This document shows, in pieces, positions 6,410 to 62,348 of a stretch of 64,000 nt of DNA. Under the pieces are notes generated by a model. It had not been told where the DNA came from, made no database searches, and saw nothing but the letters and a program-made list of their open reading frames with translations. The translations under genes and the position numbers were made by a program. How positions within the stretch are numbered: position 1 is the stretch's first letter; the number at the start of each line of letters is the position of its first letter. The stretch lies in sequence record MT682711.1, one strand, 5' to 3'. Source of the DNA: Escherichia phage vB_EcoM_FB.

Positions 6410-6760
6410 TTAATATTCTTTTAAAGAATCAATATATTCACGGCGTTTACGCCACAAATCAATTGCTTCATACGCGGATTCAGCATTTCGAATTAGCCGG
6501 CATTTATGTAAAGACTTATGATTTTGATATTGTGTAGATAACGGAATTGTATCTAAAAGGTCTTTACGATCAAAATATTCGTAACCATCTAAACCAAATG
6601 AACGATTTTTGAGAAATTGCCAATGACCATATTCGTTTTCGACATAAACATAATCTGCATGCTGATAAAGCAAATTAATTACACGTTCAGAAATAACAGT
6701 ATCATTATGATTAAAATAGAATGTTAAATCATGAACTACTAAATAAACATTACCTTTCAT
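6410..6760 (-). CDS. hypothetical protein (116 aa) inside the tRNA cluster
   Basis: ORF track; GAGGA RBS 16 nt downstream of the tRNA-Arg 3' end. Confidence 0.5.
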   Translation of the reverse strand: MKGNVYLVVHDLTFYFNHNDTVISERVINLLYQHADYVYVENEYGHWQFLKNRSFGLDGYEYFDRKDLLDTIPLSTQYQNHKSLHKCRLIRNAESAYEAIDLWRKRREYIDSLKEY

Positions 6761-6778
6761 ATTTTCCTCACTTATAAT

Positions 6779-6854
6779 TGGTCGAGGCAGTAGGGATCGA
6801 ACCTACGACCTAGGACTTAGAAGGTCCTTGCTCTTCCTTCTGAGCTATGCCCCG
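6779..6854 (-). tRNA. tRNA-Arg (anticodon TCT)
   Basis: hand-folded cloverleaf: acceptor CGGGGCA/TGCCTCG, D-stem GCTC/GAGC, anticodon stem AGGAC/GTCCT with loop CTTCTAA, T-arm GTAGG-TTCGATC-CCTAC, encoded CCA. Confidence 0.85.
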
Positions 6855-6857
6855 TAA

Positions 6858-7526
6858 TTAAAATTTCATTTTTCGACCTTTAAACCATCCTTCTGGAATT
6901 GGGTCAGTTTTCTTAATACGTTTAGAAACTTTTTCATCTAATGAATGAATCCACATCATACCAAATTGGGAATTCTTTTCGCCCTGTTGATGTTTATTTC
7001 TGGCGTGAGATTCTTTCATTTTATTAATAGTTTCAGGAGTATGATGCTTATTTAAAAATCTGCTATTATTTAAAAATTTTTCCCTGTATTCAGGAGTTGA
7101 CCACAAGCGTTTAAATACATTTGAACCATGTTTACGATATTTTTCTTGAAGTAAAATATCACTTTTAAAACGTGACTTAAACGATTTAGCTCCTTTTAAA
7201 CTAGCGTCTTTCTTCTGGTTTAGCATCCCAGGAATATTTATATGGTCCCAACCACCTTCACCACCTAATTTCAAATTATAAACATCAGGGCGCTTTAAAA
7301 ACTCTTCAGTCACAATATTCTTTTCTGACTCAAACATAGAGGTTTTATCGTCAAAGAACTCTCTAATATTTCTTTAGAAAAATTTTCTATACCATACTTA
7401 TCTTGGGCTCTTTTTAATAATTTACCAGAACCCATATATCCATCATCTAAATTTTCGGTAGAATGAGCGCCTATATAGATTTTTATTATTAATTTTATTT
7501 GTTATTTTATAAATGTAATGGAACAT
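6858..7526 (-). pseudogene. GIY-YIG homing endonuclease disrupted by two frameshifts
   Basis: three frames together rebuild a protein collinear with the intact paralog at 12737-13249 ([15 protein letters not shown] / [26 protein letters not shown]... / ...NLKLGGEGG...); AGGAG RBS before the first ATG. Confidence 0.6.
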
Positions 7527-7567
7527 AAATATCTCCTATTTCTAAGAGTATTTATGTTCCCAAAATA

Positions 7568-7638
7568 TGGCCCTGGGTGGAATCGAACCACCATCCAGCG
7601 ATTATGAGTCGCTCGCTTGACCGTCCAGCTACAGGGCC
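7568..7638 (-). tRNA. tRNA with CAT anticodon (Ile2-type as in T4, or Met)
   Basis: acceptor GGCCCTG/CAGGGCC perfect, anticodon stem AGCGA/TCGCT with loop CTCATAA, T-arm GGTGG-TTCGATT-CCACC; CCA not encoded. Confidence 0.8.
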
Positions 7639-7733
7639 TTAATTCTATTATGAAAGGCTCTTTGAGGGAAGAACCTTTGGTAATAGAGGGTACTTATTAA
7701 TAATAACACACAACTCTTAAAGCATATTACTTG

Positions 7734-8114
7734 TTAACCTTCATCAACAATAGTGTGGGTATTGGCATTAACAATTTGCCACCAGTCGAAACGATTAGAA
7801 CCGTATTGAGGCTTATTCTCGTTTTCTTTAATGATATCACGCAGTTCATCTTCAGTCGCGGCCTTTGCGATTAAGTCGGCATAACCGCCACGGGGATAAT
7901 AGTTATCACCAGCAAAGAGTAAAAAGTTTGTTTTAATATTCTTGAATTCTTCAAGAGTAATAACTGTTCCAGATGGTTGGACAATATCTACGTAACTATA
8001 TCCTAATTTCTGGGCTTCATTTACTGCTTCAAGCAGGGTGTCATGGGCCCATCCAATTTGACAATCCGGTTTTTCAGATGGGTTGGCTTGATAATCTGCG
8101 TACACTTTATACAT
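7734..8114 (-). CDS. hypothetical protein (126 aa)
   Basis: ORF-track frame 7734..8162 trimmed to ATG at 8114 with AGGTGA RBS. Confidence 0.55.
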   Translation of the reverse strand: MYKVYADYQANPSEKPDCQIGWAHDTLLEAVNEAQKLGYSYVDIVQPSGTVITLEEFKNIKTNFLLFAGDNYYPRGGYADLIAKAATEDELRDIIKENENKPQYGSNRFDWWQIVNANTHTIVDEG

Positions 8115-8115
8115 T

Positions 8116-8301
8116 TTACTCACCTTTAGAGATTTTATCCATAACGAAAGAGATTGAACCAATTAAAAATGCCACTACTAAAGAGATTGTATTCTCAGAA
8201 GTTGTAAGCAAATCCAACATGAATCCTGCAAACATACTAAAACTAAAAGTGGTAATAGCAATAAGGGCAGTAGCATTTCTAATTAATTCACAACGTTTCA
8301 T
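8116..8301 (-). CDS. small membrane protein (61 aa)
   Basis: ORF-track frame trimmed to the ATG after the GGAG RBS in the conserved leader; two hydrophobic segments. Confidence 0.5.
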   Translation of the reverse strand: MKRCELIRNATALIAITTFSFSMFAGFMLDLLTTSENTISLVVAFLIGSISFVMDKISKGE

Positions 8302-8337
8302 TTTATTCTCCAATCACTCATTTGTTTTGATAGGGCT

Positions 8338-8367
8338 ATAGTATCATCACTAAAGCCCGTTGTAAAC
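8338..8367 (-). promoter_or_regulatory. T4-type early promoter with conserved leader
   Basis: minus strand GTTTAC-18bp-TACTAT then AGCCCTATCAAAACA; partial inverted repeat GGGCT/AGCCC. Confidence 0.5.
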
Positions 8368-10815: not shown

Positions 10816-11652
10816 TTAAGAATTCTTCCATACTTTCTGAGCTGAGTAACGCTTACCTTTAGACATGAACTGTTGGAGAGGCATCATTACGACATTAGCC
10901 CAATCAGATGGTTTTATCTCTACTAAAGGTCCCTTAATATTTCCAGGGATATAAGCCTTAATCATCACGTCGGCGCCAGCGAATCCTTTTACCTTACTCC
11001 AATCGATTTTTAATTTAGTCGAGTTCGTAATGGTAGGCGTACTCGCGTATTGCTTCAGCAATTCTTCCAGAAATTGTTGTCGTGCTTTAGGTGGGATATA
11101 GTGTAAGTTCAGCCCGTACATTAAATTATGCTTACCTAGCCCAAGATAAATGATTAATGGATATTTGTCCCAGTACGGTAGGGTATCCTTATGTTTGGCA
11201 TCATAGATATACGCATAAAGCTTACCAGGAGATGGTTTAGATACCTGGTGCCCACGAATTCCTTTCTTTAATGTTTCTGTAAACCATTTAGCCGATTTAT
11301 TGTTTACAGCGGCGCCCTCGTTAGCAATCTTATCACGAATACTCTTTCTAAAACTATTCACCAAAATTAATTGACGTTCTGCTTTGGTTAATTTATTGCC
11401 AGGTTTCTTCTGAAGTTTTTCAACCTGTACAGCAGTTTTAATTCGACTCGAGTATCGAGACATCGCAGATGTAAAGCTAGAATACTTGATGCCTTTATCT
11501 TCAGCGAATTTCTTAGCCGAAACACCTTTAGCCTTAGCGTTGGCATATTCAACGCCTAAAGTTATCCATTGTTGTTCTGAACGAGTAGGCTTGGAACCTT
11601 TTGTAGTTTCAGTAGCCTCGTTGATGTAAGAAAATATACTCATCCTTTCCAT
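10816..11652 (-). CDS. 2: DNA end protector gp2
   Basis: 278 aa, synteny with T4 gp2. Confidence 0.8.
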
Positions 11653-12089
11653 CCTAATTTTTTCAGTGAGTTTTCGGTAATCAATCTGAAATTAATTCCC
11701 ATTTTATCTGCTGTAGCTTTAGCAGCTTTCCATTTATCTTTATTTACACTCCATGTATAATGTTCGTTGATATATCTCTTTTTAGCAGCTGTAGTCATTT
11801 TAGCAGGCGCCGCTGGAGGATGGGTCTCTTTAAAAGGTTTGACTTCGAAAAAGAATTGTTGACCATTGTCGAACTTCACCCAGAAGTCCATAAAATACCG
11901 ACGTTTCTTTCCATCAGCGTTACTAAAATATGGAATCACAACCTCTTCCGAGTTCCACTGGACGACATTAGGATGGTTGTCAAGCCAACGCATAAGCCAT
12001 GCTTCCCAAGAGGAACGATATTGGATTTTCTTCCAATCACCTTTATATTTTTGTAAGTTTGTAGGTTTAAATTTCCCTGAGTAGGCCAT
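11640..12089 (-). CDS. 4: head completion protein gp4
   Basis: 149 aa, synteny with T4 gp4. Confidence 0.8.
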
Positions 12090-12134
12090 AGTGCCTCCTT
12101 ATAAATATTAATATTATTTATACTCGGAGGCACT

Positions 12135-12737
12135 ATGCTCTTCTCATTTTTCGATCCTATAAATTACGAATCAAAAACAGTCAAGCCAGATTCCGGCTCA
12201 TTAACTGATGCCGATGTACTGAGCGTACCGATGACTGATATATTTAGAAACTATAAAGAATATTTTGATAAAGTGGCTAAAAATTATACACTTAAAACAT
12301 ATTATATCAGTGGGGCCCCTCGTCCAGAAGAATTAGCCCATCAACTTTATGGTAACGTGCAATTATATTGGATCCTTTTAATGTGTAACAATATCTATGA
12401 CCCTTATTACGGCTGGATTACAGGCCAAGAATCTGCGTATCAAGCAGCTATTCAACGTTATGCTACTGCAGGCGGAAACCAAGTCCTTTATCATGTCAAT
12501 GAAAAGGGTGAGAAATTCTGGAATCTAGTAAATACTCCGGAAAATCCTTATACTTGGTACGATAAAGGTGATACAGAAAAACGTTATCCTCAATATGAAG
12601 GTCCTTTGGCTGCAGTAGATATTTACGAGGACGCCATTCGTAAAAATGAATATAAGCGCGAAATAAAGATTATAGACCCTAATGACATCGAGTCCTTTGT
12701 TTCCGCTTTAATTAGAGAAATGGAGAAGTCACTCTAA
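12135..12737 (+). CDS. 53: baseplate wedge protein gp53
   Basis: 200 aa; first gene of the plus-strand baseplate block, before gp5. Confidence 0.8.
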   Translation: MLFSFFDPINYESKTVKPDSGSLTDADVLSVPMTDIFRNYKEYFDKVAKNYTLKTYYISGAPRPEELAHQLYGNVQLYWILLMCNNIYDPYYGWITGQESAYQAAIQRYATAGGNQVLYHVNEKGEKFWNLVNTPENPYTWYDKGDTEKRYPQYEGPLAAVDIYEDAIRKNEYKREIKIIDPNDIESFVSALIREMEKSL

Positions 12738-13249
12738 TGTTTTATTACGTCTATAAAATAACCAATATAATTAATGGTAAATTTTATATCGGTGCTCATA
12801 GTACATCAAATATGGATGACGGTTATATGGGCTCAGGTAAATTAATTAAACGCGCTATACTAAAATACGGCATTGAAAATTTCAAAAAAGAAATATTAAA
12901 ATTTGTTGATTCTAAAAAAGAAATGTATGAACTCGAAAAAGAACTTGTTGTCCTTACTGAAAATTCATACAATTTAAAACCGGGCGGTTCCGGTGGGTTT
13001 TTAAAACATGATAACTTTAAAGGCAGGTCCCATAGTCAGAAAACCAAAGATATTATGAGCGCTAATAACTCAGGCAAAAACAATCCTATGTATGGTAGAA
13101 AACGAGACCAACACGGAGAAAAAGCACCTAATTATGGTAAAAAGTGCTCTGAGGCTAAAAGAAAATTACTTTCTGAAAAATCTAAATCCTATTTTGAAAA
13201 CCTTCAAACCATAACTAAAAAATCTCGGCTTTGGTCCTACATCGGTTGA
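12737..13249 (+). CDS. GIY-YIG homing endonuclease (seg-like)
   Basis: N-terminal YVYKITNIINGKFYIGAHS; later NLKPGGSGG and basic C-terminus; start overlaps gp53 stop (TAATG); T4 has no gene here. Confidence 0.8.
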   Translation: MFYYVYKITNIINGKFYIGAHSTSNMDDGYMGSGKLIKRAILKYGIENFKKEILKFVDSKKEMYELEKELVVLTENSYNLKPGGSGGFLKHDNFKGRSHSQKTKDIMSANNSGKNNPMYGRKRDQHGEKAPNYGKKCSEAKRKLLSEKSKSYFENLQTITKKSRLWSYIG

Positions 13250-13295
13250 AACTAGATATGTATCAAGACATATTAAAAAGCTAGGATTAGATTTT

Positions 13296-13303
13296 TATAA
13301 ATT
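13296..13303 (+). promoter_or_regulatory. late promoter (TATAAATT) upstream of gene 5
   Basis: one mismatch to the T4 late consensus TATAAATA. Confidence 0.45.
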
Positions 13304-13369
13304 TAATCGTGATATAACAGAAACTAATGTTTCCATAGTTAGAAATATTTTAGAACAAAGGAAAGCGCT

Positions 13370-15157
13370 ATGATTAACATGTCTGATAATGTAAGTTGGT
13401 TCGTCGGTGTAGTTGAAGACCGAATGGACCCGCTCCAACAAGGCCGAGTACGCGTGCGCGTATGGGGTATGCATCCTTACGAAAAGGTCCAAGGTCCTGT
13501 AAAAGGCCTTCGTACAGAGGATTTACCGTGGATGTCCGTATTAATGCCTACATCTTCTGCCTCTGTTTCTGGTATCCAAACCGCTATGACTGGTATGGTT
13601 CCAGGTACTCAGGTTTATGGGCACTTTCTTGATAAGTGGAAATTAAACGGGCTTGTCCTCGGTACATATGGTTCCGCTTCAAGACAAAAGGCTAATCCTA
13701 ATGAAGGTTTTAGTGACCCGACAGGTCAATACCCACTTTATTTGGGTAATGATGCTGCAGCACTAAACCGAGGTGGTGAAGTTGGATACGATGCCACTTC
13801 CAACGTAATACAAGATGCAAACACCGATGTAGGTATTAATCCTGATGGTTTAGATTTGAGCCAGGTTAAGCCTGATGATAATCCTAATTTCACAATAGAA
13901 AACATGCTTCACCGTGATGAAGGGCTTCGACTGAAGGTATATTGGGACACCGAAGGATACCCTACTATCGGTATAGGTCACCTTATTACACCACAACCTA
14001 TTAGAGATATGAATCAAATAAACAAAATATTATCTAATCAGGTAGGACGAGAAGTTAAAGGTAACCCTGGTGCAATATCAATGGACGAGGTTTCTAAATT
14101 ATTCCAAGACGACCTTAAAAAAGTCCAAAACGATATAGGCAGGCATAGTGTTGTAGGTCCTGTTTATAATAAAGAAAACCGTTCGAGACAAATGGCTCTT
14201 GAAAACATGGCTTTCCAAATGGGATTGGGCGGCTTGGCTAAATTCCGTGGAATGCTTAGTGCAATGCTAATAGGCGATTATAAAAAGGCATTTGAGGAAG
14301 CTCGTAATTCAGTATGGTTTAACCAAACTAAAGGCCGTGCATCAAGGGTGTCAATGATTATCCTCACAGGTAACATGGAATCATATGGTATTATGGCCCC
14401 TAAAGAAAGGTCATTTAATGGCCGTTCGTATAGAATGATTCAAACCTTTGTGGCCCCTACAAATTCAGACCCTGCCGACCCGTGGACTCCAGAAGACACA
14501 AGGATTCTTTTTAAAGAACCTGATTCTAGTTATAAAGGCGAATATCCATATGTCCAAACCATGCAAACTGAAGGCGGGCATATCCAAGAATTCGATAATA
14601 CTCCAGGGCAAGAACGATACCGTTTAATCCATCCTACCGGTAGTTATGAAGAAGTTGCTCCTGATGGACGTAAAACTTCTAAGACGGTAGCCGATGGTTA
14701 TTATATGACCCAAGGCGATTCAAATACTTATGTTGGTGGTAATAATAAAGTCAACGTTGGTGGCGATGAAACCTATTATAATATGGCAAACGTGCGCCGT
14801 CAAACTGATGGGTCTGAAAGCATTCATATTCGAGGGAATGAAACCAAAACTGTAGAAGGTAATGGAACTCTGCTTGTTAAAGGAAATGTTAAAATAGTTA
14901 TTATGGGTACTGCTGATATAACTGTTGAACAAGAAGCATATATTACGGTTGAAAAAGATACAACAGTTAATGTCAACCAGAATGCAGATATAAGCGTTAA
15001 ACAAAAGGCCACAATCAATGCTCAAAATATGGATGTAAATGTCGAACAAGATTTAAATTTTGCAGCGACGAACATTAATTTAAACGCATCAAATACTGTG
15101 CATATGGATGGCGGTTCATTAGCTAAAGTATCTGGTGGCAACGTACAGGTCGGTTAA
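13370..15157 (+). CDS. 5: baseplate hub / tail lysozyme / cell-puncturing spike gp5
   Basis: central lysozyme-like segment and C-terminal VxVxxNxxIxV beta-helix repeats; 595 aa. Confidence 0.9.
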   Translation: MINMSDNVSWFVGVVEDRMDPLQQGRVRVRVWGMHPYEKVQGPVKGLRTEDLPWMSVLMPTSSASVSGIQTAMTGMVPGTQVYGHFLDKWKLNGLVLGTYGSASRQKANPNEGFSDPTGQYPLYLGNDAAALNRGGEVGYDATSNVIQDANTDVGINPDGLDLSQVKPDDNPNFTIENMLHRDEGLRLKVYWDTEGYPTIGIGHLITPQPIRDMNQINKILSNQVGREVKGNPGAISMDEVSKLFQDDLKKVQNDIGRHSVVGPVYNKENRSRQMALENMAFQMGLGGLAKFRGMLSAMLIGDYKKAFEEARNSVWFNQTKGRASRVSMIILTGNMESYGIMAPKERSFNGRSYRMIQTFVAPTNSDPADPWTPEDTRILFKEPDSSYKGEYPYVQTMQTEGGHIQEFDNTPGQERYRLIHPTGSYEEVAPDGRKTSKTVADGYYMTQGDSNTYVGGNNKVNVGGDETYYNMANVRRQTDGSESIHIRGNETKTVEGNGTLLVKGNVKIVIMGTADITVEQEAYITVEKDTTVNVNQNADISVKQKATINAQNMDVNVEQDLNFAATNINLNASNTVHMDGGSLAKVSGGNVQVG

Positions 15158-15158
15158 T

Positions 15159-17222
15159 ATGAATTACTACGATAAAGTTGATGAAGTGGTAGGGACTGTA
15201 ACAAGTCCCTGTGATGACGCAGTAGGACCCGGTGAATATCGCCGGGTTAAATGGGAATTATATAACCCAACAGGTGCTTTTATTCAACCTGGGAATGGCG
15301 TTGAATGGGATACCGAGATTATTCCACTAGCTACACATTTATACACACAAAATCCATTTGGTAATAAGTCCGAAACTTTTCCTGCACCTCCCCCACCGGA
15401 AGATGGAACAAGTCAAGGTATCTGGTGTGCTAAACTCGGAATATTCTTTATTACGCAATTGGATTTAGAAAATTATGTAGAATCGATTGGTGCAACTCTT
15501 TTGCCCGGTAATGATTGGTACGGCGCTGATTTATCAAAATCTGTATTGTATAAAACATCTATTGAATATGATATGTATCGCATCGAAAACTGTGGCGGTG
15601 TATGGACATCACAAGGCCCCAGAATGGACCCCAGGACGATGATTGCAGTTACGGCTGATTATCATATGTATGTCAACTTTAACGGCCTTGGTGACTCCCG
15701 CAGGGCTTATTTGAAGTACTATGAGACAAAACCTTGTACTTATGTTGGACTGGTATTAAATCTAGATGTTGATACGAGTATCCCAGGAACTCCGATTCCG
15801 GGACCGGTATCCATCGGGTCTTTACCGCCAGAAATAACCGGGCGAGCCAGGGCAATAGGCTGTGTTCCTTTTACAGCGGAATTCCCTTACAACGGATTGA
15901 CCAATGCGATTATGGCTTCATGGAATACATCTAGGAATTCATTCAAATTATATTGGGATATGCTCCCTGGATGGCCATCATCTGGTGGAACCGATTGGGA
16001 AAAATTCTTCGATTCTGGTTATAGTAAGCTATCGGTCGCAATGGAAGAGCTAGGCAACTCAGCTGTTGCTATGTGTCAATATGTTCAGCAAATGGCTTTT
16101 CTTGCATTTAAAGATGCCATATCACAGGTCTTGAATATTGTTGGCGGTGGGTGGGACTTACTTAAAAGCTTTTTACCCTCGATTACTATTATGGGCATGA
16201 CTATTGACCTAGAAGACCTCTGCACTTCAGGTGATGGTGTACAGAAATTAAAAGAAGCATGGAAAAACTTTAATTTAGAAGAAACCATCCAATCGATTTA
16301 TTCTGCCATTGGGTCTGCATACGATTATTCGGTTGAACGCGTCAAGATGTATTCGCGTGACCTTATTGATGCAATTACAGACTTGTATGACTGGGCCTGG
16401 TCTCAATTGCTTATGGCTGGTGTTGCATTATCAAAACTGTGTGTAGACCTCGCTCAAATATGGAGTATGCCTCCTATAGTTCCGAACCCAGTTTGGAGCG
16501 TTATTACTGCGGTCAAGGAAATGATGAAGCAAGTTAAACCACTGGACATGATAATGAGCGGTAACTTTCCAGGATTCACAGCATCAGATGTTTATCAAAT
16601 GGTTATGGAAAAGGTAGACCAGAAAATAGACGAAGCTTATGCAATGATTGAGGCTCTTAAAACCCAGGCACTCAATCTGTGGAATGAGATTAAGCTCAAA
16701 AAGCAAGAAGTACAAAAACAAGCTATTGAATTTAAACAATATCTTTCAGGAATGTACGAAAAAGTTACAGACGAGCTAACTGCTCAGAAGGAAGCCGCAT
16801 TAGCACAAGCTGAAGCTGCACTCGAACTTTTAAAGAATAAATATAATCAGATTAAGAACTCTATTACCGAAAGTCAAACCTCCGTTTCTGATGTATTAGA
16901 TATGGCTTTAGAAGAATTCAAAAAACTTCCTATTGTGGCTCAAATGGAAGAACTTCTCGGTATGCTCGGAGCTACTGTAGATGATATCATGGTTATATAC
17001 GAGAACTCAGTAACTAAAGCAAAATCTTTATATCACGAATTTACTGATGGTTCCAGGTCAATGAAAGACTTGTGCAAATCAATGTATAACCAAATATCAA
17101 CATTATCCTTAAGTAAGGTGGTACAATGGATTAATAAGATGCTGGGAATATTCGGTTTAACGATTGCATTTCCATCCCTTTCCATTTGCATACCTTGTTT
17201 AGAATCTCCTACTAGGAATTAA
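15159..17222 (+). CDS. novel 687-aa protein between gp5 and gp6
   Basis: uninterrupted 688-codon frame; ATG 1 nt after gp5 stop (track start 15135 is GTG); stop 1 nt before gp6 ATG; no T4 counterpart recognised. Confidence 0.75.
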   Translation: MNYYDKVDEVVGTVTSPCDDAVGPGEYRRVKWELYNPTGAFIQPGNGVEWDTEIIPLATHLYTQNPFGNKSETFPAPPPPEDGTSQGIWCAKLGIFFITQLDLENYVESIGATLLPGNDWYGADLSKSVLYKTSIEYDMYRIENCGGVWTSQGPRMDPRTMIAVTADYHMYVNFNGLGDSRRAYLKYYETKPCTYVGLVLNLDVDTSIPGTPIPGPVSIGSLPPEITGRARAIGCVPFTAEFPYNGLTNAIMASWNTSRNSFKLYWDMLPGWPSSGGTDWEKFFDSGYSKLSVAMEELGNSAVAMCQYVQQMAFLAFKDAISQVLNIVGGGWDLLKSFLPSITIMGMTIDLEDLCTSGDGVQKLKEAWKNFNLEETIQSIYSAIGSAYDYSVERVKMYSRDLIDAITDLYDWAWSQLLMAGVALSKLCVDLAQIWSMPPIVPNPVWSVITAVKEMMKQVKPLDMIMSGNFPGFTASDVYQMVMEKVDQKIDEAYAMIEALKTQALNLWNEIKLKKQEVQKQAIEFKQYLSGMYEKVTDELTAQKEAALAQAEAALELLKNKYNQIKNSITESQTSVSDVLDMALEEFKKLPIVAQMEELLGMLGATVDDIMVIYENSVTKAKSLYHEFTDGSRSMKDLCKSMYNQISTLSLSKVVQWINKMLGIFGLTIAFPSLSICIPCLESPTRN

Positions 17223-17223
17223 A

Positions 17224-19182
17224 ATGGCTACTCCTACGAATTACCAATTAACAAGAACCGTTAACGCTATCCCAAAAGTATTTGTGGGAGCTACGTTTGA
17301 AGAGATTAAAAAGAATATTATTGATTGGCTTTCTAGCCAGGACGAATTTAAGGATTACGATTTCGTTGGTTCGCGAATGAATATCCTGATTGACATGTTA
17401 GCTTACAACACCCTGTATATGCAGCAGTTTGCTAATACCGCGGTATATGAATCTTTCATCGGTACCGCTAACTTGCGTTCCTCCGTCGTCCAGGCTGCAC
17501 AGGATAACGGCTATTTGCCAAGTTCTAAATCAGCAGCCAAAACAAGTATCATGTTGACCTGTACCCAAGCCCTGAATGAAAAGAATATTCGTATCCCGCG
17601 TGGTACTAAATTCTTGGCCTATGCCCGTGATACTTCAGCAGACCCGTATGCTTTTGTTACCACGGAAAACGTTATTGCCGTACGTGATGTTAATAACCAA
17701 TATCTTCCTATCGTATCTTTAGCACAAGGTCGTATTATCCGTACTGAACTTAAGTATGACCCTAAAACTCCTATTCTTATTCGTGACCCGGATATTGATA
17801 GACAGGAAGTTAAACTTTATGTCGATGGCGCAGAATGGACTAACTGGACTAATAAATCCATGGTTCATGCTGGTAGTACATCAACAATTTACTATATGCG
17901 TGAAACCGTAGATGGTAATACTGAATTCTTCTTTGGTGAAGGTGTTGCTGAAAAATCAGTTGCAGGTGGGGTATTAGAAGCTAATTATATTGGTGGTTTA
18001 AAACCTGTTAAAGATGCTACCATTGTTATAGAATACCTTCGTACAGATGGTGAAGTTGCTAACGGGGCAGTGGACTTTAGTTATGCGGATTCTTTGGCAT
18101 ATATTACGGTTGAAAAAATTACAGAAAACTACGATGAAAACCCGGATTATGTAGGTGCTGACGGTGGTGGTGACCCTGAAGATATTGAACGTATTCGTGA
18201 ACTTGCTGTAGTTAAACGTGAAGCCCAGATGCGTGCTGTAACCGGTACAGATTATGATACATTCGTTTCGGAGCGATTTGGTTCTATTGTACAAGCAGTA
18301 CAAACCTTTACAGACCCAAATAAACCAGGTTATGCCTTTGTTACCATTAAACCTAAATCAGGATTGTATTTGACTGCGGTTCAACGCGAAGATATCCAAA
18401 ATTATCTTTCAGAATTTAACTTGGCACCTATTACCCCTTCGGTTATTTCTCCTGACTACTTGTTCTTGAAGCATAAAATTAAGGTTTCATATGCACTGAA
18501 CAAATTACAGGAATCCGAACAATGGTTAACGGCTCAAATCCTTTCCCAAATAGACCGTTATTATATTAACGAAGTTGAAATATTCAACCACGGATTTGCC
18601 AAGTCTAAAATGCTGACTTATATTGATAATGCAGACCACAGTATCCTTGGCTCTTCGGCTACGGTAACAATGGTTCGCGAGGTATTAAACTTCTTCAAAA
18701 CACCTGAAGCGGGTATTAAATACTATAATCAATACACCAACCGTTCTGTAACTTCTAGTGAATTTGAGTTCGTCCCAACAAACGTATCGGATGTTGTTAA
18801 ATCTTACAACGTACGTATTGTTGCCACAGATAAAGACGAACGAGGCGATGGTAAAATGGTTATAGGTCCTTTCCGACCTGGCGATGTAATTGAAAACCAA
18901 TACATCCAACCTTACACCGGAGATGACTTTGATAAAATGGCAGCGCCTGCAGACCAATCAGTCTACTATGTTATTGGCGAAATTGATTATTACTCAGATT
19001 TTATTTTCTGGGATATTGCCGCAATAGGCCTTACTTCCGACCGTTTTGAAGTCCAGTCTATTGAACTGTATGCAGGGCCAGACCAAGACAACATCTTTAC
19101 CAAAGACGGTTCTTTAATCGTATTTGAAGATGACCTTCGTCCTCAGTACACAACTATAGAGTTGGAACCAATTACAATATAA
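17224..19182 (+). CDS. 6: baseplate wedge protein gp6
   Basis: N-terminus M..NYQLTRT.NAIP..FVG.TF.EIK and LRSSVVQAAQDNGYLP match T4 gp6 as recalled; 652 aa. Confidence 0.85.
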   Translation: MATPTNYQLTRTVNAIPKVFVGATFEEIKKNIIDWLSSQDEFKDYDFVGSRMNILIDMLAYNTLYMQQFANTAVYESFIGTANLRSSVVQAAQDNGYLPSSKSAAKTSIMLTCTQALNEKNIRIPRGTKFLAYARDTSADPYAFVTTENVIAVRDVNNQYLPIVSLAQGRIIRTELKYDPKTPILIRDPDIDRQEVKLYVDGAEWTNWTNKSMVHAGSTSTIYYMRETVDGNTEFFFGEGVAEKSVAGGVLEANYIGGLKPVKDATIVIEYLRTDGEVANGAVDFSYADSLAYITVEKITENYDENPDYVGADGGGDPEDIERIRELAVVKREAQMRAVTGTDYDTFVSERFGSIVQAVQTFTDPNKPGYAFVTIKPKSGLYLTAVQREDIQNYLSEFNLAPITPSVISPDYLFLKHKIKVSYALNKLQESEQWLTAQILSQIDRYYINEVEIFNHGFAKSKMLTYIDNADHSILGSSATVTMVREVLNFFKTPEAGIKYYNQYTNRSVTSSEFEFVPTNVSDVVKSYNVRIVATDKDERGDGKMVIGPFRPGDVIENQYIQPYTGDDFDKMAAPADQSVYYVIGEIDYYSDFIFWDIAAIGLTSDRFEVQSIELYAGPDQDNIFTKDGSLIVFEDDLRPQYTTIELEPITI

Positions 19183-19209
19183 GCCTCTTCGGAGGTTTAA
19201 GGAGATTTA

Positions 19210-22200
19210 ATGTCTGTACAAGCGCCTTATGTTACTAGTCTGAGAATTGATAAACTCTCGGCCAACCATGTGAGCATTCTTTGGGATGACGTAGGCGCCA
19301 ACTTCTATTATTTCGTAGAACTGGCCCAAACGAAGGATGCGGGTGTAGAAATTCCCGACGATAGATTATTTTGGAGAAATTTAGGTTACACCCCTAATAA
19401 CGAATGGTTTGAAGAGGCATTCATTTCTCCTAATTCATTTTATAAAATGCGAGTTGCGGTGGCCGCCCAGGGGTTTGAGCAGTCTGAATGGGTTTACACT
19501 GAAGAATTTGAAACTTTCTCTACCAACGCATATACATTTGAGCATATGCGCGAATTCGCGTTGTCTAATAAATTTATTGAAGAAAAATTCACAAAAAATA
19601 ATCAGAATTATGTGAACTTTAATACTGACGCCATTATGGCTTCTTTGATGAGTGAAGATTTTAACTTTACGCCAGCGTATTCGCATTTGTCATCTATATC
19701 AAATTATGTTTTAAAAGCCGACCGTTTCCATGAAATCCAAGGAAGCATCCAAGCGGTTTGTAAAGACCCTAAACGTTCTATTTTAATGGAACTTGGTGGT
19801 GTACTTTACCTTTTAGAAAGATTCCAAAGTACCGCTAAGGTTTCTAATGATAAAGGGCAGAACTGGCATTATATCCGTTTGTTTAATGACCGAGTAGGTA
19901 ACCCTGTTTCGCGTACAGCACATTACCAAACTGAAACTACTACGTATGTTCTAGGTTATGACCAAATATTTTACGGACGTAAATCAAGTGATATTCGTTG
20001 GTCTGCCGACGATGTCCGTTTTAGCTCTCAAGATGTAACATTTGCTAAAATAGGTAGTGATATCGACCTTCCATTTGAAATCGAGATATTTGGTTCTTAT
20101 GCAAAACTTCCTTTGCCTATTTCCACTATTGCTGAAGCTATATGCGCTTCTGACGATTTCATTTATGTTGCAGGTAGAGACAGAGTTTATAAAGCAAAAA
20201 CATCTGAGGCTCCTATAGACACCGACCCTAGTTCTCCGACTTATGGAGAGAAGATATTTGAAAGCGGATATTCAACTATCACAGGGAACCCTAAAGCAGT
20301 TTGTTATAAATTAGATTCTATCCAAGGCCGTACATTTGCTTTAATTACAGGTGAAGTTAAAGAAGAAAAAATGGACCCTACGGTCGAATCCAATGTGGTT
20401 GATTCTGAATCCAAAGGTGTTTATTGGTTAGACACTTCAACTGATACATGGACTCGTGTATTTGGAAACACCGAAGAAGAACGTCGTCGTATAGAGCATG
20501 GGTATACCAGCATGTCTACCGACGGAGAGGAATTATTTTTCAGTTCAAGCAACTTTAGATATGAAGTAGAGGTTGATTCTGAGCTTCCTTTGGAATACCC
20601 TGAAATTGTCACCTCCGCCGTTAAATATGTTAAAGATGAACAATGGATTCACGATAAACATTATTTGATGATGAGTTTTAGGTCTAACTCTAAATCCGAT
20701 TTCAAAGAATTTAAACCTGGGCGTATGGCTTATTATGCCGAACCATTCTTTAGTTGGTCTCGACGCGATGGAACCCGTTCATGGATTACCACCGGTGACC
20801 ATGCGATGGTTGTTTATAACGATGCTTTATACCAGAAAATTATCGACCTGAACAGTGGTTCTTCACCTGAACGTATTGTTCATGAGATTTGGAATAAAGG
20901 TTTTTGTAAAGTCACATCTCCTAATATAGAGTTCAACGGCTTTAAGAAATATTCTTCTGGAATGATGATTCACAAATCTACAGGTGAATTGGTTGGATAT
21001 TTTGAATTCGACTATCGTGTACGCGATGAAGTCCGTGTTATTTGGAAGCCTAAAGAAATTATGTTTACGGCTGAATTGCAAAACCAAGAACATGAAATCC
21101 CGTGGAAACCTAAAGAGGAAGTTGGTGAGCAAGACCCGGACCTCCAGCCTTTACTGGTTAAAATGATTCCAGATAGTTATTTGCTTCAAGATAGCAACTT
21201 TGAAAAATTCTGTGAATACTATCTCCAATTTATTAGTGATGGCTCAGGTACACACTATAATAATTTGTTGAATCTTATTCGTAACCAATACCCACGTGAA
21301 GAAGATTCATGGGAATATTTGTGGTCGGAAATCTATAAGCGTAATATCTATTTGTCGAAAGAAAAACGCGACGAAGTAGTTCGTTTTTTCCAGGCGCGCC
21401 AAACCGATTTTTGGTCTACAAAAGGTACCGAAGCTTCATATAAATTCCTGTTTAAATTGCTTTACAATGAAGATGTAGAAATTGATATCGAGTCCAAGAA
21501 CTCTATCGAATATGATATCATCGTAGAATCTGATAATATCAGTGAAGATATCGTAGGCCAAACGATTTATACTCCTACAGGTCGTAGTAATGTTACTTAT
21601 ATAGAACGAAATTACAAAGATGGTAAACTGCAATGGCGTTTAACCATTCATAATCTTTTAGGTCGTTTTATAGTCGGACAGGAAATTAAATCTGAACGTA
21701 CTTCGTTCAAGGGTATGATTGTTCAGGGCGTACGTGGTAAAGAGCTTTTGAGTAACAATATCGACTATATCAACCGTAACCGTTCTTATTATGTGATGAC
21801 CATTAAGTCTAATCTCCCTACTTCTCGTTATCGCAACGATGTTTTGAGATTTGTTCATCCAGTAGGTTTCGGCTTTGTAGGTATAACTTTGCTTTCTATG
21901 TTCGTTAACGTAGGTTTAACGCTAAAACATACAGAAACTATTATTAATATCCTTAAGAACTACAAATGGGACTCAGGTTTGCCATCTGAATGGTATGATA
22001 GAGTTGCTGTAATAGGTTTTGATGGTAATATAGAACGAGACCCTAGAACAGGACTTCCGGTTTATAACGTTGGACCTAAAGCAGGAGAACCGTTTGATAT
22101 CCCTGCAGATTATGATGCGGAAAATGATTTCTCTGTATTCCAAGGTCAATTACCACACGAACGTATTAAAAAGCATAGTCCATTGTTTGACCAAAGTGCT

Positions 22201-30817: not shown

Positions 30818-31462
30818 ATGAACTATAATAAGATTTACAAATCTTTAATAAATAAGGGCCTCGAAAGAGGTCTAAATAAAAAGAAGGTAGGGTTTTATAC
30901 AGAGAAGCATCATATTGTCCCTAAATCCATGGGTGGTAGTGAAGACAAATCTAATTTTGTTCTTTTAACCGCTAGAGAACATTTTGTAGCTCATCAATTA
31001 TTGTATAAAATACACAAAAACCGTTCTATGGCCCATGCTATGATTAATATGTGTGCTGATAGCACAGGTAATAGGGTTAATTCTAAGTTATTAGATTGGC
31101 ACCGTAAAGCTAAGGCTAGGGCCCAAAGCGAGATGGTTTCAGGTGAAAACCATCCTATGTATAACAAGAAACATAAAAAAGAAACATTAGAAAAAATGAG
31201 ATTGGCCAAATTAGGCGTCCCATGGACTGAAGAAGTTAAGGAATCTAGAAGAGAAGAATTACTTAAAACCTCTGAACATGCTAGGACTTTCATCGACTAT
31301 AAATCTGGCGGAGAAAATTCAGCCGCAAAGAAAATATGTATAGAAGGTATAGTATTTGATTATATGGAAGAAGCGGTTCCTTGGTGTAATATATCAAGAA
31401 GAACTCTTTTAAATAGAATCAAATCTTCAGACCCTAAATGGAGGGATTGGAATTATGTCTAA
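30818..31462 (+). CDS. HNH homing endonuclease
   Basis: HNH core [31 protein letters not shown]; inserted between 13 and 14; overlaps gp14 start. Confidence 0.8.
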
Positions 31463-51506: not shown

Positions 51507-52175
51507 CTATTTATTAACTAAATTCTTTTCAAATGTTTTAACCATATAGGCCACATCTAAATCAGGAAATCCGTTCTCAACTATTATGTGTCGAAATTTC
51601 CTTCTTTTAGGCATTCCTTCCTTTATCCAAAGTTCATGAATTTCCTTTTCAAATTCCCATAATTTACTTCTCATTGAAGGCCTAGGCTGAGAATGTTTAC
51701 CTATATGAGCTTCATTAGCCTCTTTAGTACGTTTTTTACCCGACTTAGCTAACGACATAGCCTTTTTAGCTTCTTCTGTATGAGAATATGGATTTCTTTT
51801 ATGGCCATCACTTATGGCTTTTTTGGTTAATTCAGACCTTGGGATGCCTCTTATTTTTGATGCGCCTTTTTCAACAGATTCAGGGGATTTGGATGTACAA
51901 CTACCTCCTTCACCACCTGGCTTCATATTCATACAGCGAATACCTTTACCAAACTTATCCCAGGCCTCTTCTATCAAAAGCTCTTCGAATTCATAAGCAA
52001 GTTTTTCAGTATCGAAAAAGGTTCTATCGATTATTTCCATTCGGTACTTTAATCTTTTTGCATAATAGATGTAATTACCTGACCCTACATACTTATCAGA
52101 TATTTTATCAGAAGAATGCTTGCCAAAATACAGCCTAGTTCCGTTAGGCGAGTATACTAAAGTTTGGTAACACAT
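51507..52175 (-). CDS. GIY-YIG-like homing endonuclease (degenerate N-terminal motif)
   Basis: VYSPNGTRLYFGKHS...YVGSG and MKPGGEGG align with the other two GIY-YIG genes; ATG start chosen at 52175 (track start 52205 is TTG). Confidence 0.6.
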   Translation of the reverse strand: MCYQTLVYSPNGTRLYFGKHSSDKISDKYVGSGNYIYYAKRLKYRMEIIDRTFFDTEKLAYEFEELLIEEAWDKFGKGIRCMNMKPGGEGGSCTSKSPESVEKGASKIRGIPRSELTKKAISDGHKRNPYSHTEEAKKAMSLAKSGKKRTKEANEAHIGKHSQPRPSMRSKLWEFEKEIHELWIKEGMPKRRKFRHIIVENGFPDLDVAYMVKTFEKNLVNK

Positions 52176-60296: not shown

Positions 60297-62348
60297 CTAC
60301 CCTTGTACAAATTTATATTGGAGAGCGTCGATATCTATACAAGAAGCTAACAAGCCAAGACCTCTGTCTGAGTTCTTTTTCTTCTCATTAGAAACAAATG
60401 AATCAAAAGAAAGCTCACCACCATCTTTATAGACAACGAGTTCTCCTGTTTCCATTAGGGCATCACCGTCGTATACTACAGCTTCATTAAGTTCATCTGC
60501 AGTCATTACTTCGGCTTGAATAAACTTATTGTTAGAACGAGTAGTCCCGTTGTTATATGAGGCATCTGTAATTTTATTGATTTTAACCATCAACCCTCTA
60601 GGAAGAATTACTTCCATTTCGTTAGAAGGGGCTAGGTCTCCACCAGGTAAAACGACATTTACTTTATTAGCACCAGTAATGGCCCAACCGATACCTACTA
60701 AGGTATCTTTAACTGAATATACCAAGCCTTCATCAGATTTATCTAAAGCAACATCTCGACGCTTTTCATCAGGTAAAACACCAACACCAGAATCGGTCAT
60801 CCATGTACCAAAAATATTTGGATAAAGTGATGTTGATACAAAGTTCCTGAAATAGAATACTTTGTTTTTAACCATAGCCAGGTAAATATCAGGAATCATT
60901 CGTTGAGAACGATAAAGCGTGATACCTTCCGGAAGTTGTTCACCATTTTCAAAAGCAGAATCTAAGTTATTGATAGCTTTTTCTATCTCTTCATTAGTCA
61001 AAATACTGGTTCTTGTATTAGGGTCGCGGATTCCTAAAAGAACATTATTCATATCTTCGTAACCGGAGCCAACGTATTCACGAATACCACGCTTCTGTGC
61101 TGGTGTATAACGAGATACGTCTTTATTTTCTACAATAGAATGTAATTGCCAACCCGCGGTAAGAGCATAAACACGCAGTTCGCGCTGAATAATTTTGGTC
61201 TTTATAGCATTCCAAGAATTTTCGGCTAACTCTATGGCTTCGTGATAACCTAAGTGAGAATGCCGGGCCATTAGTTTTTGAAGCCAAGGGCCTTTATATT
61301 CTTCGATGACATCATCAACCACTGAAGCATAATTTTCTAGAGCTTTTACTGAAGTCACATTTAATCCATGTAATTTCTCAAAAGCTCTCATTTTTATGTC
61401 GGTATTAATTTCTTCCATTTTATCTTCTGGAATAAGAAGGTTGTCTTTAAACGACATACCGCCGGTATTAGCACTAATGGTATTTTCTAAAGCCAAGAAA
61501 GAATTAGAAATAACCTTTATTTCATTTGCTTCCGGCATTAAAGGACCTGTAGCAGGTTTATTCAATTCGACAGCATTAGACTCAAATTTCTTAAACATTG
61601 GAGTTTCGAAACGAGATGATTCTAAGGATTGCGACATAGCAATAGCACGACGTGAAATCTTAGTCTTGGTAATGACAGCCTTATCAGTACGTTTCTCTTC
61701 AACTTTAGCTATACTTGCCGAGACGGCTTCGGCCTTACTTACGGCCTGGCCAGTTTCCTTAGAAACATAAACTTCGCCAACTTTAGACTCAACCTTAGTA
61801 TAAAGCTCGGCATCAATTTCAGGCATACCCTTAATATCTTCAATATTAGTACCACGACGTACTAAAAGAACATAGGTATGTTTTCCGGTGAATTGGTACA
61901 TGGCATCAACAACTTTAAACTTACCACCAGTACGAGCCATAGCTAAACGAGCTAATACACGCTGAACAGTAGGACCCTTACCTTTCATTTTCTTGGTAGG
62001 GAACCGGAAAAGAACTGCATCCATTTTAAGTTTGTTTACTTGTTCGTATACAGTATCAAAAATGGTATTCAGCGTACCAAGTGGGTCAGAACCTAACCCA
62101 CCTTTCAACTCGGCTGGGCTACCCTTAGCAGACAAACTCATCAAAATAACATGAACATATTTGTCTCCGGGCTTAACCATTTTAATAGCGTCTCCTTGAG
62201 ACGCATAAGATACCATACGAGCAACCAGGTTATCATTACCTGGCGCTTTAATAGAGAAAATCTGTGGGATACCGGAACCTGGTTTAAGATTTATTACTGG
62301 ATAGTTTTTATCGGAATCACTATCAAAAACCTCGTTTAAATTTTCCAT
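60297..62348 (-). CDS. alt: Alt ADP-ribosyltransferase (virion-packaged)
   Basis: 683 aa (T4 Alt 682); R-S-E ART motifs (R in LYRSQRM, NFVSTSL, IQAEVMT); location after gene 54. Confidence 0.85.
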   Translation of the reverse strand: MENLNEVFDSDSDKNYPVINLKPGSGIPQIFSIKAPGNDNLVARMVSYASQGDAIKMVKPGDKYVHVILMSLSAKGSPAELKGGLGSDPLGTLNTIFDTVYEQVNKLKMDAVLFRFPTKKMKGKGPTVQRVLARLAMARTGGKFKVVDAMYQFTGKHTYVLLVRRGTNIEDIKGMPEIDAELYTKVESKVGEVYVSKETGQAVSKAEAVSASIAKVEEKRTDKAVITKTKISRRAIAMSQSLESSRFETPMFKKFESNAVELNKPATGPLMPEANEIKVISNSFLALENTISANTGGMSFKDNLLIPEDKMEEINTDIKMRAFEKLHGLNVTSVKALENYASVVDDVIEEYKGPWLQKLMARHSHLGYHEAIELAENSWNAIKTKIIQRELRVYALTAGWQLHSIVENKDVSRYTPAQKRGIREYVGSGYEDMNNVLLGIRDPNTRTSILTNEEIEKAINNLDSAFENGEQLPEGITLYRSQRMIPDIYLAMVKNKVFYFRNFVSTSLYPNIFGTWMTDSGVGVLPDEKRRDVALDKSDEGLVYSVKDTLVGIGWAITGANKVNVVLPGGDLAPSNEMEVILPRGLMVKINKITDASYNNGTTRSNNKFIQAEVMTADELNEAVVYDGDALMETGELVVYKDGGELSFDSFVSNEKKKNSDRGLGLLASCIDIDALQYKFVQG

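Follow-up and report, generated by a model that had tools for sequence, protein, structure and literature searches.

Organization of the interval between gp5 and gp6

The window analyzed here is a 64,000-nt (64 kb) stretch of Escherichia phage vB_EcoM_FB (MT682711.1), in which one long ORF lies between the baseplate genes gp5 and gp6 (Table 1). As given in the initial annotation, the ORF starts with the ATG at 15159, its stop codon ends at 17222 and it encodes 687 aa, with a 1-nt gap on either side (15157 is the last position of the gp5 stop codon, and the gp6 ATG begins at 17224). An in-frame GTG lies upstream (15135); since the alignment of the orthologs begins at the ATG (MNY...), it was rejected as the start. 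The annotated baseplate neighbours were borne out by Pfam: gp53 matched PF11246, gp5 matched Gp5_OB, lysozyme and Gp5_C, and gp6 contained five gp6 domains.

When the + strand from 11000 to 20000 was scanned for the T4-type late promoter pattern, a single consensus was observed, upstream of gp53. The T4 late-promoter consensus is well established, and judging from it this site would act as a late promoter. Since no other late promoter was found on the + strand of this region, 53-seg-5-ORF-6-7 are probably transcribed as one late transcript. A Seg-like endonuclease is encoded close by in the window.

Table 1 Features of the gp5-gp6 interval and its surroundings (window coordinates)
Feature	Position	Strand	Basis or remark
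T4-type late promoter consensus, TATAAATA	12100..12107	+	Pattern scan; 5' of gp53
gp5 body, aa 1-519 (OB fold, lysozyme, proximal beta-helix)	13370..14926	+	Pfam, alignment, DNA breakpoint at 14926
gp5 distal beta-helix tip, aa 520-595, VQVG-type (...SLAKVSGGNVQVG), no HxH	14927..15157	+	Left part of the module
Exchanged module (gp5 tip and whole 687-aa ORF)	14927..17212	+	DNA breakpoints
687-aa ORF, stop codon included	15159..17222	+	phrog_5296 / RB43 ORF205w family; putative non-PAAR central-spike tip protein
N-terminal a/b core domain, aa 1-200	15159..15758	+	Predicted new fold
Pro/Gly-rich connecting region, aa 201-293	15759..16037	+	AF2 pLDDT
Helical region 1, aa 294-474	16038..16580	+	Region-wise identity, invariant columns, DSSP
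Long antiparallel coiled-coil hairpin, aa 475-590	16581..16928	+	AF2 helices 475-529 and 538-575
Conserved C-terminal region, aa 591-687	16929..17219	+	52 % identity to RB43
Conserved hydrophobic C-terminal segment, aa 658-682, ...INKMLGIFGLTIAFPSLSICIPCLE	17130..17204	+	KD19 = 1.87
gp6 baseplate wedge subunit	17224..19182	+	Pfam; backbone, outside the module; JS98/IME540 homology resumes here

The initial annotation had noted neither a separate small tip ORF nor PAAR motifs, and both observations held. Searches of the window with gp5.4 (tblastn and HMM) and with gp5.1 and gp5.3 (tblastn) gave no match. The window covers 64 kb of its own phage, and the WG01 genome, to which the window aligns at 85-99 % nucleotide identity (99 % over gp5-gp13), was used as a proxy; homologs of gp5.4, gp5.1 and gp5.3 were not found in the whole WG01 genome either (tblastn; HMM for gp5.4). 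On six-frame segments the best E-value of the gp5.4 HMM was 0.38 vs 3.8 × 10−69 for the JS98 positive control. Pfam gave no PF05488 match at E ≤ 0.1. A conserved His/Cys metal site was not observed among 47 family sequences, as these contain no conserved His; C18 and C193 are invariant in them, while C235 and C677 are each present in 46 of the 47. The gp5 C-terminus (...NTVHMDGGSLAKVSGGNVQVG) contains just one His, and an HxH is not present near it. Phages RB43, RB16 and Lw1 were also reported to lack gene 5.4, and a separate tip protein is expected when the gp5 end does not carry the HxH of self-tipped spikes (PMC12407873).

Composition and predicted structure of the 687-aa protein

The AF2 model of the protein is confident (pLDDT 86.5). 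The N-terminal half had been described as Gly-, Pro-, Trp- and Cys-rich, which was found for Gly (10.0 vs 4.3 %), Pro (8.6 vs 2.8 %) and Trp (3.1 vs 2.0 %) and not for Cys (1.7 vs 1.5 %). Within this half, aa 1-200 carry most of the invariant residues (C18, Y27, R28, W50, W120-D124, E143-G146 and C193 among them). The fold of this domain is predicted to be novel. A profile search against solved structures gave no significant match, a BFVD structure search returned only orthologs, and no NCBIfam model matched the 687-aa protein. An exhaustive sequence-profile search recovered no bacterial relatives of the N-domain, and no pseudo-threefold repeat was detected in it.

The connecting region (aa 201-293) reaches pLDDT 76-87 in the full-length model vs 31-72 in the isolated N-terminal fragment. 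A good model of it is obtained only together with the helical part, against which it therefore probably packs. Conservation within the protein is highest in helical region 1 (86 % identity to G8 and 49 % to RB43), which contains the invariant loops IWSMPPxVPNPxW and SGNFPGFT. The long coiled coil of the initial annotation was recovered in the model as the two helices of the hairpin, where sequence conservation is lowest (38 % identity to RB43). Weak tape-measure protein (TMP), apolipoprotein-like and coiled-coil matches stem from this hairpin. Some GenBank records suggest a tape-measure identity; this was rejected, as the matches are sub-threshold and limited to the coiled coil, and gp29 is present (WG01 ORF195).

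In the case of the hydrophobic helices, the earlier description was correct in part. The segment 417-435 is sub-threshold (KD19 = 1.51), and the segment 662-680 (KD19 = 1.87) is conserved, but residues 673-682 form a beta-strand in the AF2 model, with helix only up to residue 664. Across the 47 family sequences the median KD19 of the hydrophobic C-terminal segment is 1.85, and C677 is nearly invariant.

Joint exchange of the ORF and the gp5 tip

The protein had been called uncharacterised. It belongs, however, to a conserved family (phrog_5296 / RB43 ORF205w) that has been in the literature since 2006, when it appeared as a novel ORF (PMC1524935), and that was taken up in 2025 as a candidate for the spike tip. 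The phrog_5296 match is full-length (E = 0; profile positions 1-684 of 685), and RB43 ORF205w (YP_239181) is an ortholog at the same locus with 43 % identity over 99 % coverage. By sequence, the ORF is thus the Dhakavirus representative of this family, whose members are about 664-764 aa long, share a single architecture and form eight full-length clusters at 50 % identity (profile search). A search with the 687-aa ORF gave matches in 215 phage records.

As had been suggested, the interval was compared across related T-even genomes, and same-slot orthologs that are exchanged together with the gp5 tip were found. Twelve loci were examined (the window, RB43, phT4A, G8, Pm5461, KP15, LPCS28, Mm5, SP18, WG01 and two metagenomic contigs). 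The gene lies directly 3' of gp5 in all of them, although in LPCS28 gp6 is not the next gene.

The gp5 body belongs to the backbone, with 96-99 % amino acid identity to gp5 of JS98 and IME540. The tip shares only 33-34 % identity with those of JS98, IME540 and T4, compared with 90 % with G8 and 100 % with SP18, CJ20 and WG01. Body and tip identities were 99 and 34 % for the window vs IME540, 96 and 33 % for the window vs JS98, and 100 and 33 % for G8 vs T4; the split is reversed for the window vs G8 (66 and 90 %). At the DNA level, homology between the window and IME540 stops at 14926 and returns at 17213. Between G8 and T4 the break lies at gp5 aa ~502 and homology is regained 9 nt before the end of the ORF, the flanks being 97-98 % identical. 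The breakpoints therefore agree in two genera. When the window was compared with SP18, the module showed 99.1-99.2 % nucleotide identity and the flanks 70.7-87.2 %.

The tip type fits the ORF in 12 of 12 loci, and no VQVG tip was observed without the gene among the loci examined. A tblastn search with the gp5 tip gave 215 records, and the organism and host tallies were identical to those of the ORF search. Both the pairing and the ...TGGTV(Q/S/V)VG ending are kept in Morganella phage vB_Mm5, the weakest tip match, and in the two metagenomic members that diverge most (identity of about 31 % or less). A mirror-tree correlation was also calculated and was dropped as weakly discriminating (r = 0.92 for tip and ORF, r = 0.83 for tip and body).

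These data show that the tip and the ORF are co-inherited and co-transferred, and that the gene and the ~76 C-terminal residues of gp5 move as a single module. The family and a spike-tip proposal for it were already known; the cassette with the gp5 end is new. In the Dhakavirus backbone the ORF is visibly a swapped-in module and not a lineage trait, as judged from the alignments. The swapped gp5 segment (T4 aa ~503-575) falls within the gp5-beta fragment 484-575, which suffices for gp5.4 binding (crystal structure 4KU0).

A candidate spike tip and the alternatives

We consider it likely that the ORF product is a non-PAAR tip which caps the matched gp5 beta-helix. The initial annotation had proposed a virion-associated, possibly spike-tip-linked protein, and two lines of indirect evidence support this. 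The first is the orthology to ORF205w together with the tip density of RB43. In a 2025 preprint, Mattenberger et al. proposed ORF205w as an unusual spike tip from a 17.7 Å cryo-EM map; a larger tip, into which the ORF205w model fits, was the sole difference between the RB43 and T4 baseplates (PMC12407873). The map was C6-averaged, the authors worded the tip assignment as "possibly", and they did not achieve co-production of ORF205w and gp5-beta (PMC12407873). The second is the strict co-inheritance and co-transfer of the gene with a distinct gp5 beta-helix end. The initial annotation had also held that full-length homology to a conserved T4-family protein would speak against the spike-tip idea. 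Such homology was formally found, but the idea still stands because the homologous family is itself a candidate tip protein. The N-domain, having no pseudo-threefold repeat, counts against a monomer capping the trimeric helix. We found no published virion proteomics for any ortholog-bearing phage in the literature (the available ValerieMcCarty proteome is from Jiaodavirus, a genus of the gp5.4 type).

Many fibre and spike chaperones are encoded just downstream of, and co-vary with, the C-terminal tip that they service. Accordingly, the ORF product could be a chaperone dedicated to folding or assembling the variant end of the gp5 beta-helix and would then not be part of the mature virion; the longer helix or another protein would account for the larger tip density of RB43. 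This reading predicts the co-inheritance and co-transfer equally well; the VQVG-type helix exceeds the T4 type by ~15 residues, co-expression with gp5-beta gave no complex, and we found no published virion proteomics. We nevertheless regard it as unlikely. Phages with the ORF have no other tip gene while their gp5 has no HxH self-tip, and the extra tip mass in the RB43 map is large enough for the ORF205w model. In addition, a strongly conserved multi-domain protein of 77 kDa would be unusually large for servicing a ~76-residue segment, and the T4 gp5 beta-helix is not known to require a dedicated chaperone.

It is very unlikely, in our view, that the product is a virion protein other than a cap, that is, an ejected tape-measure-like or translocon protein that lies inside or along the hub or tube and inserts into the inner membrane for DNA passage. 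Least credible of all is that the gene is a late moron or selfish cassette without a structural role, such as a factor for superinfection exclusion or host interaction, which sits in a permissive intergenic slot and is linked to the gp5 tip only through the places at which recombination is tolerated. In favour of this, lateral mobility of the cassette is clear, a Seg-like endonuclease is near, and plasticity is known for the 5.1-5.4 slot, which holds segC in T4. Against it, hitch-hiking cargo would not impose the tip/ORF matching seen in 12 of 12 loci and in the identical 215-record tallies down to about 31 % identity or less, the left boundary lies repeatedly inside an essential structural gene, the right boundary is the gp6 start with nothing extra, and loss of the gene is never combined with a VQVG tip among the loci examined.

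For the favoured spike-tip reading, the following course may be proposed. Late expression of the ORF would come from the baseplate operon, and its translation is probably coupled to that of gp5 (TAA-T-ATG). Part of its product would dock on the blunt C-terminal end of the matching VQVG-type gp5 beta-helix, in parallel to gp5.4 on the T4-type end. The tip protein and the helix end must fit each other, and they would therefore evolve and recombine as one cassette (window 14927-17212). Upon sheath contraction the tip would be driven with the spike across the outer membrane into the periplasm, where the large helical portion and the conserved hydrophobic C-terminus may engage the envelope or inner membrane. 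Physical binding to gp5, its stoichiometry, periplasmic release and any membrane activity are steps that we infer.

A further proposal, which we hold to be doubtful, is that the 77-kDa protein is a delivered envelope-active device of new fold and the phage counterpart of T6SS tip-borne effectors. Once the outer membrane has been punctured, the protein would come off gp5. Its amphipathic helical bundle and its conserved hydrophobic C-terminus would then open a route for the DNA by inserting into, or remodelling, either the inner membrane or a periplasmic partner such as PpiD. If this were true, exchange of the gp5 tip together with the tip protein would represent a way of adapting to the host envelope that does not depend on the tail fibres.

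The spike tip is the first part of the phage to pass through the host envelope. The putative tip protein and the gp5 docking end make up one exchangeable cassette with defined boundaries, and a second tip type, unrelated to gp5.4 and far larger, is putatively present in 215 sequenced phages; among these are many phages of Klebsiella, Enterobacter, Cronobacter and Proteus that have been considered for therapeutic use. Some of the phages are nearly isogenic natural partners, so that swapping the cassette would test its function directly: the gp5 bodies of T4 and G8 are 100 % identical in amino acids, IME540 pairs with the window, and SP18 has a cassette of 99 % identity in a backbone that has diverged. 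The module boundaries also supply construct limits for co-expression, which has been unsuccessful so far.

Comparison with known systems

Tape-measure proteins (PhageMin_Tail PF10145; phrog_305, 8462, 8927 and 4070) give weak profile matches to aa ~340-665 and share long amphipathic apolipoprotein-like helices with the protein. However, it has no TMP core domain, its gene is in the wrong position and the phage already has gp29; these matches are compositional or due to coiled coil.

The specialised or evolved PAAR and VgrG proteins of the T6SS differ in that the window protein lacks a PAAR or VgrG module as well as a recognisable toxin domain and is not homologous to them. By analogy, both would combine a spike-tip adaptor with a large extra domain carried through the target envelope, and both have hydrophobic or helical C-terminal parts. 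The apex domains of P2 gpV and phi92 gp138 also represent the sharpened terminus of the central spike of a contractile tail, but their tips are fused to the spike and HxH-dependent (Fe-binding), whereas the candidate tip is encoded by a separate gene.

The conical beta-fold with pseudo-threefold symmetry of T4 gp5.4 and the PAAR tips (PF05488; PDB 4KU0 and 4JIV) is absent from the window protein. Nevertheless, the gene occupies the same slot just before gp6 in the same late operon, the putative role is likewise capping of a blunt gp5/VgrG-type trimeric beta-helix without an HxH self-tip, and for both tip genes the helix end involved in the interaction varies along with the gene.

Compared with RB43 ORF205w, the window ORF lies in a Tevenvirinae (Dhakavirus) backbone whose closest relatives have gp5.1 and gp5.4. 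The ORF205w model was of low confidence according to the preprint (PMC12407873), whereas the window protein, known from sequence and model, reached the high pLDDT given above. In both phages the gene order is 53-5-X-6-7, gp5.4 is absent from the genome, the gp5 in front of the gene ends in the same C-terminal motif, and the protein has an a/b N-terminus followed by an all-helical remainder.

Locus and distribution of the ORF

The window comes from a T-even phage, and its nearest relatives by megablast were the Dhakavirus phages PSD2002, LHE83, WG01 and Bp7 (96-99 % across the block used as query). The 687-aa ORF that the initial annotation had placed between gp5 and gp6 was borne out. Its neighbours were identified by Pfam as gp53, gp5, gp6 and an endonuclease of the Seg-like GIY-YIG type. 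The gp5 stop ends at 15157, the gp6 ATG is found at 17224, and the TAA-T-ATG junction suggests that the ORF is translationally coupled to gp5. The only late-promoter consensus on the + strand within 11-20 kb is located at 12100, upstream of gp53, which is consistent with the proposed co-transcription with the baseplate genes.

The protein matches phrog_5296 (annotated 'unknown function') over its entire length (E = 0) and received no assignment from Pfam or NCBIfam. When tblastn was applied, full-length homologs were found in 215 phage records. Identity was at least 99 % in SP18, CJ20, Bp7 and WG01, 72 % in the Tequatrovirus phages G8, SG1 and PD112, 59 % in Proteus Bragavirus and 43 % in RB43; KP15, other Slopekvirus phages and Lw1 were also matched, and carriers include Cronobacter, Citrobacter and Enterobacter phages. 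The family is narrow, since only 8 full-length clusters came out of a profile search that covered 1.84 billion representatives exhaustively. The remaining matches were either fragments or tape-measure-like proteins matched through the coiled coil only.

The homolog lies directly 3' of gp5 in all loci inspected. In Cronobacter phage LPCS28 it follows gp5 but gp6 is not next, and therefore the linkage is to gp5. Small reverse-strand hypothetical genes replace gp6 3' of this ortholog (locus L008, 4562-7067); thus, the Nanhuvirus baseplate gene order is rearranged. The phT4A ortholog (locus L004, 3846-5473) is annotated as 486 aa with a start 170 nt past gp5, and its tblastn coverage was limited to query aa 193-682. 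The record is flagged 'partial genome', and the probable cause is therefore a defect in assembly or annotation rather than a natural truncation. GenBank names the orthologs of Roth88, Roth90 and phi1_146002 'tail length tape measure protein' and those of HK6 and VAC66 'baseplate hub structural protein', and often labels gp5.4 'phospholipase'. These public labels are inconsistent and none is backed by the present analyses.

Exchange of the gp5 tip and the ORF

When this interval was compared among related T-even genomes, as the initial annotation had proposed, the close relatives JS98, IME540, QL01 and MX01 were found to carry gp5.1 and gp5.4 in place of the ORF, which is present in G8, SP18 and WG01. 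No gp5.4, gp5.1 or gp5.3 homolog was found in the window or the complete WG01 genome, in agreement with the earlier statement that a separate spike-tip ORF is missing, and the HxH motif of self-tipped spikes is absent from the gp5 end of the window.

The gp5 body (aa 1-519 in the window) and tip (aa 520-595 in the window) share 96 % and 33 % amino acid identity, respectively, between the window and JS98, 99 % and 34 % between the window and IME540, 100 % and 33 % between G8 and T4, and 66 % and 90 % between the window and G8. At the DNA level, homology between the window and IME540 ends at 14926 (gp5 aa ~519) and restarts at 17213; between G8 and T4 it breaks at gp5 aa ~502 and is back 9 nt before the ORF stop, and the breakpoints coincide in two genera. 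Nucleotide identity to SP18 (Gaprivervirus) is 99.1 % in the gp5 tip and 99.2 % in the ORF versus 87.2 % in the gp5 body, 78.1 % in gp6 and 70.7 % in the 5' part of gp7. This pattern points to a lateral transfer that was recent and comprised exactly the module of gp5 tip and ORF.

In all ORF-bearing phages, the gp5 C-terminus conforms to ...L(T/A/S)K(I/V)(T/S)GG(T/N)VQVG, and that of gp5.4 phages is ...GQYTIDGSRIDIG. Among the metagenomic members, the two that diverge most (identity of about 31 % or lower) retain ...FTGGTVSVG and ...FTGGTVVVG. The most divergent, on metagenomic contig P0065 (locus L017, 219-3624), is 743 aa long and follows a 389-aa gp5 with an OB fold and beta-helix. As this gp5 has no lysozyme domain and still ends in ...FTGGTVVVG, the tip-ORF pairing outlives the loss of the gp5 lysozyme. 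The 76-residue gp5 tip also matched 215 records by tblastn, with organism and host tallies identical to those of the ORF search; its weakest match, Morganella vB_Mm5, carries the ortholog too. A mirror-tree analysis (r = 0.92 for tip and ORF vs 0.83 for tip and body) adds little. The swapped gp5 segment falls within fragment 484-575, which is enough for gp5.4 binding in 4KU0 (PMC12407873).

Other variable elements in the window

Coordinates of the ORF, its module and other variable elements
Feature	Position	Strand	Remarks
gp5 tip + ORF module	14927-17212
ORF	15159-17222	+	687 aa
Seg-like GIY-YIG/NUMOD3 homing endonuclease	12737-13249	+	between gp53 and gp5
HNH/NUMOD3/I-TevI-DNA-binding-type homing endonuclease	30818-31462	+	214 aa; inserted upstream of ORF at 31455; no WG01 counterpart
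222-aa ORF	51507-52175	-	missing from WG01
~2 kb without WG01 counterpart	6411-8362		small reverse-strand ORFs (116, 159 and 126 aa)
Alt-like ADP-ribosyltransferase	60297-62348	-	PF03496, E 3.6e-29

The Seg-like endonuclease has a counterpart in IME540 and none in WG01, JS98 or SP18. No record in the phage collection contains both this endonuclease and the cassette (best coverages 94 % or 65 %); the phage of the window is therefore a mosaic unrepresented in the collection. It is a speculation that endonuclease-driven co-conversion helps to move the adjoining cassette. The 222-aa ORF has a GIY-YIG endonuclease-like N-terminus (YFGKHSS...YVGSGNY) and no Pfam match at E<=1e-3. Part of the Alt-like gene is unalignable to WG01, and the region looks like a variable paralog array because WG01 has three tandem Alt paralogs.

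Predicted structure and the proposed spike tip

Structure prediction with AlphaFold2, using a 47-sequence alignment, gave a confident multi-domain model (mean pLDDT 86.5, pTM 0.77). It consists of an a/b N-terminal region, whose core (aa ~20-200) stays at pLDDT >90 also when modelled in isolation; a connector rich in Pro and Gly; a helical region (aa 294-474), which is the best-conserved part and contains IWSMPPxVPNPxW and SGNFPGFT as invariant loops; a coiled-coil hairpin (aa 475-590) that is long and poorly conserved; and a conserved C-terminal region with a hydrophobic segment at its end (KD19 1.87; family median 1.85). The composition and secondary structure described initially hold overall, except that Cys is not enriched and the C-terminal hydrophobic segment is modelled partly as beta-strand. 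In the fold searches, BFVD returned orthologs alone, a PDB-sequence profile search was negative and hhalign self-comparison gave no internal repeat. For these reasons, the N-domain is predicted to be a new fold.

The RB43 ortholog, RB43ORF205w, was listed as a novel ORF by Nolan et al. 2006 (PMC1524935). Mattenberger et al. 2025 (PMC12407873) solved the structure of T4 gp5.4 on the gp5 tip and reported that gene 5.4 is missing from RB43, RB16 and Lw1, which have the ~690-residue gene orf205w at that locus. Their 17.7 A map of the RB43 baseplate has a tip of greater size, and an AlphaFold model of orf205w, itself of low confidence, can be placed in it; co-production with gp5-beta was unsuccessful, and the final 60 residues in RB43 and T4 gp5 are just 15 % identical (PMC12407873). 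The spike-tip idea of the initial annotation coincides with this proposal for the ortholog, which is published but unproven; the main thought has thus appeared in print before, and its support is indirect.

We consider it probable that the ORF encodes a non-PAAR spike tip, which would be produced late along with the baseplate proteins, dock onto its matched gp5 beta-helix end and be driven through the outer membrane by contraction. The analysis shows orthology, synteny, the lack of a PAAR gene, joint inheritance and transfer with the gp5 tip, and the multi-domain model; we infer direct binding to gp5, as well as stoichiometry, any membrane activity and what becomes of the protein once the membrane is punctured. 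The main rival, a tip-specific folding chaperone, predicts co-inheritance with the gp5 tip equally, but the RB43 tip density from the literature, the size of the protein and the absence of another tip gene argue against it, and we regard it as unlikely. A tape-measure-like or ejected lumen protein fits the data less well than a spike tip and is more doubtful still. An unrelated mobile cargo gene, also a poorer fit than a spike tip, is highly improbable.

The present analysis adds the structure and boundaries of the module, evidence that it is exchanged laterally both within Tevenvirinae genera and between them, evidence of the tip-ORF pairing in more distant T4-related genera, the 215-record match of the ORF with the gp5 tip type, a confident model whose predicted fold is without known relatives, and natural near-isogenic pairs usable in experiments; the biology is attractive to the specialist. 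The ORF is a further member of the recently proposed ORF205w-type giant spike tip rather than a new kind, and its N-domain differs from both PAAR and the gpV-type apex.
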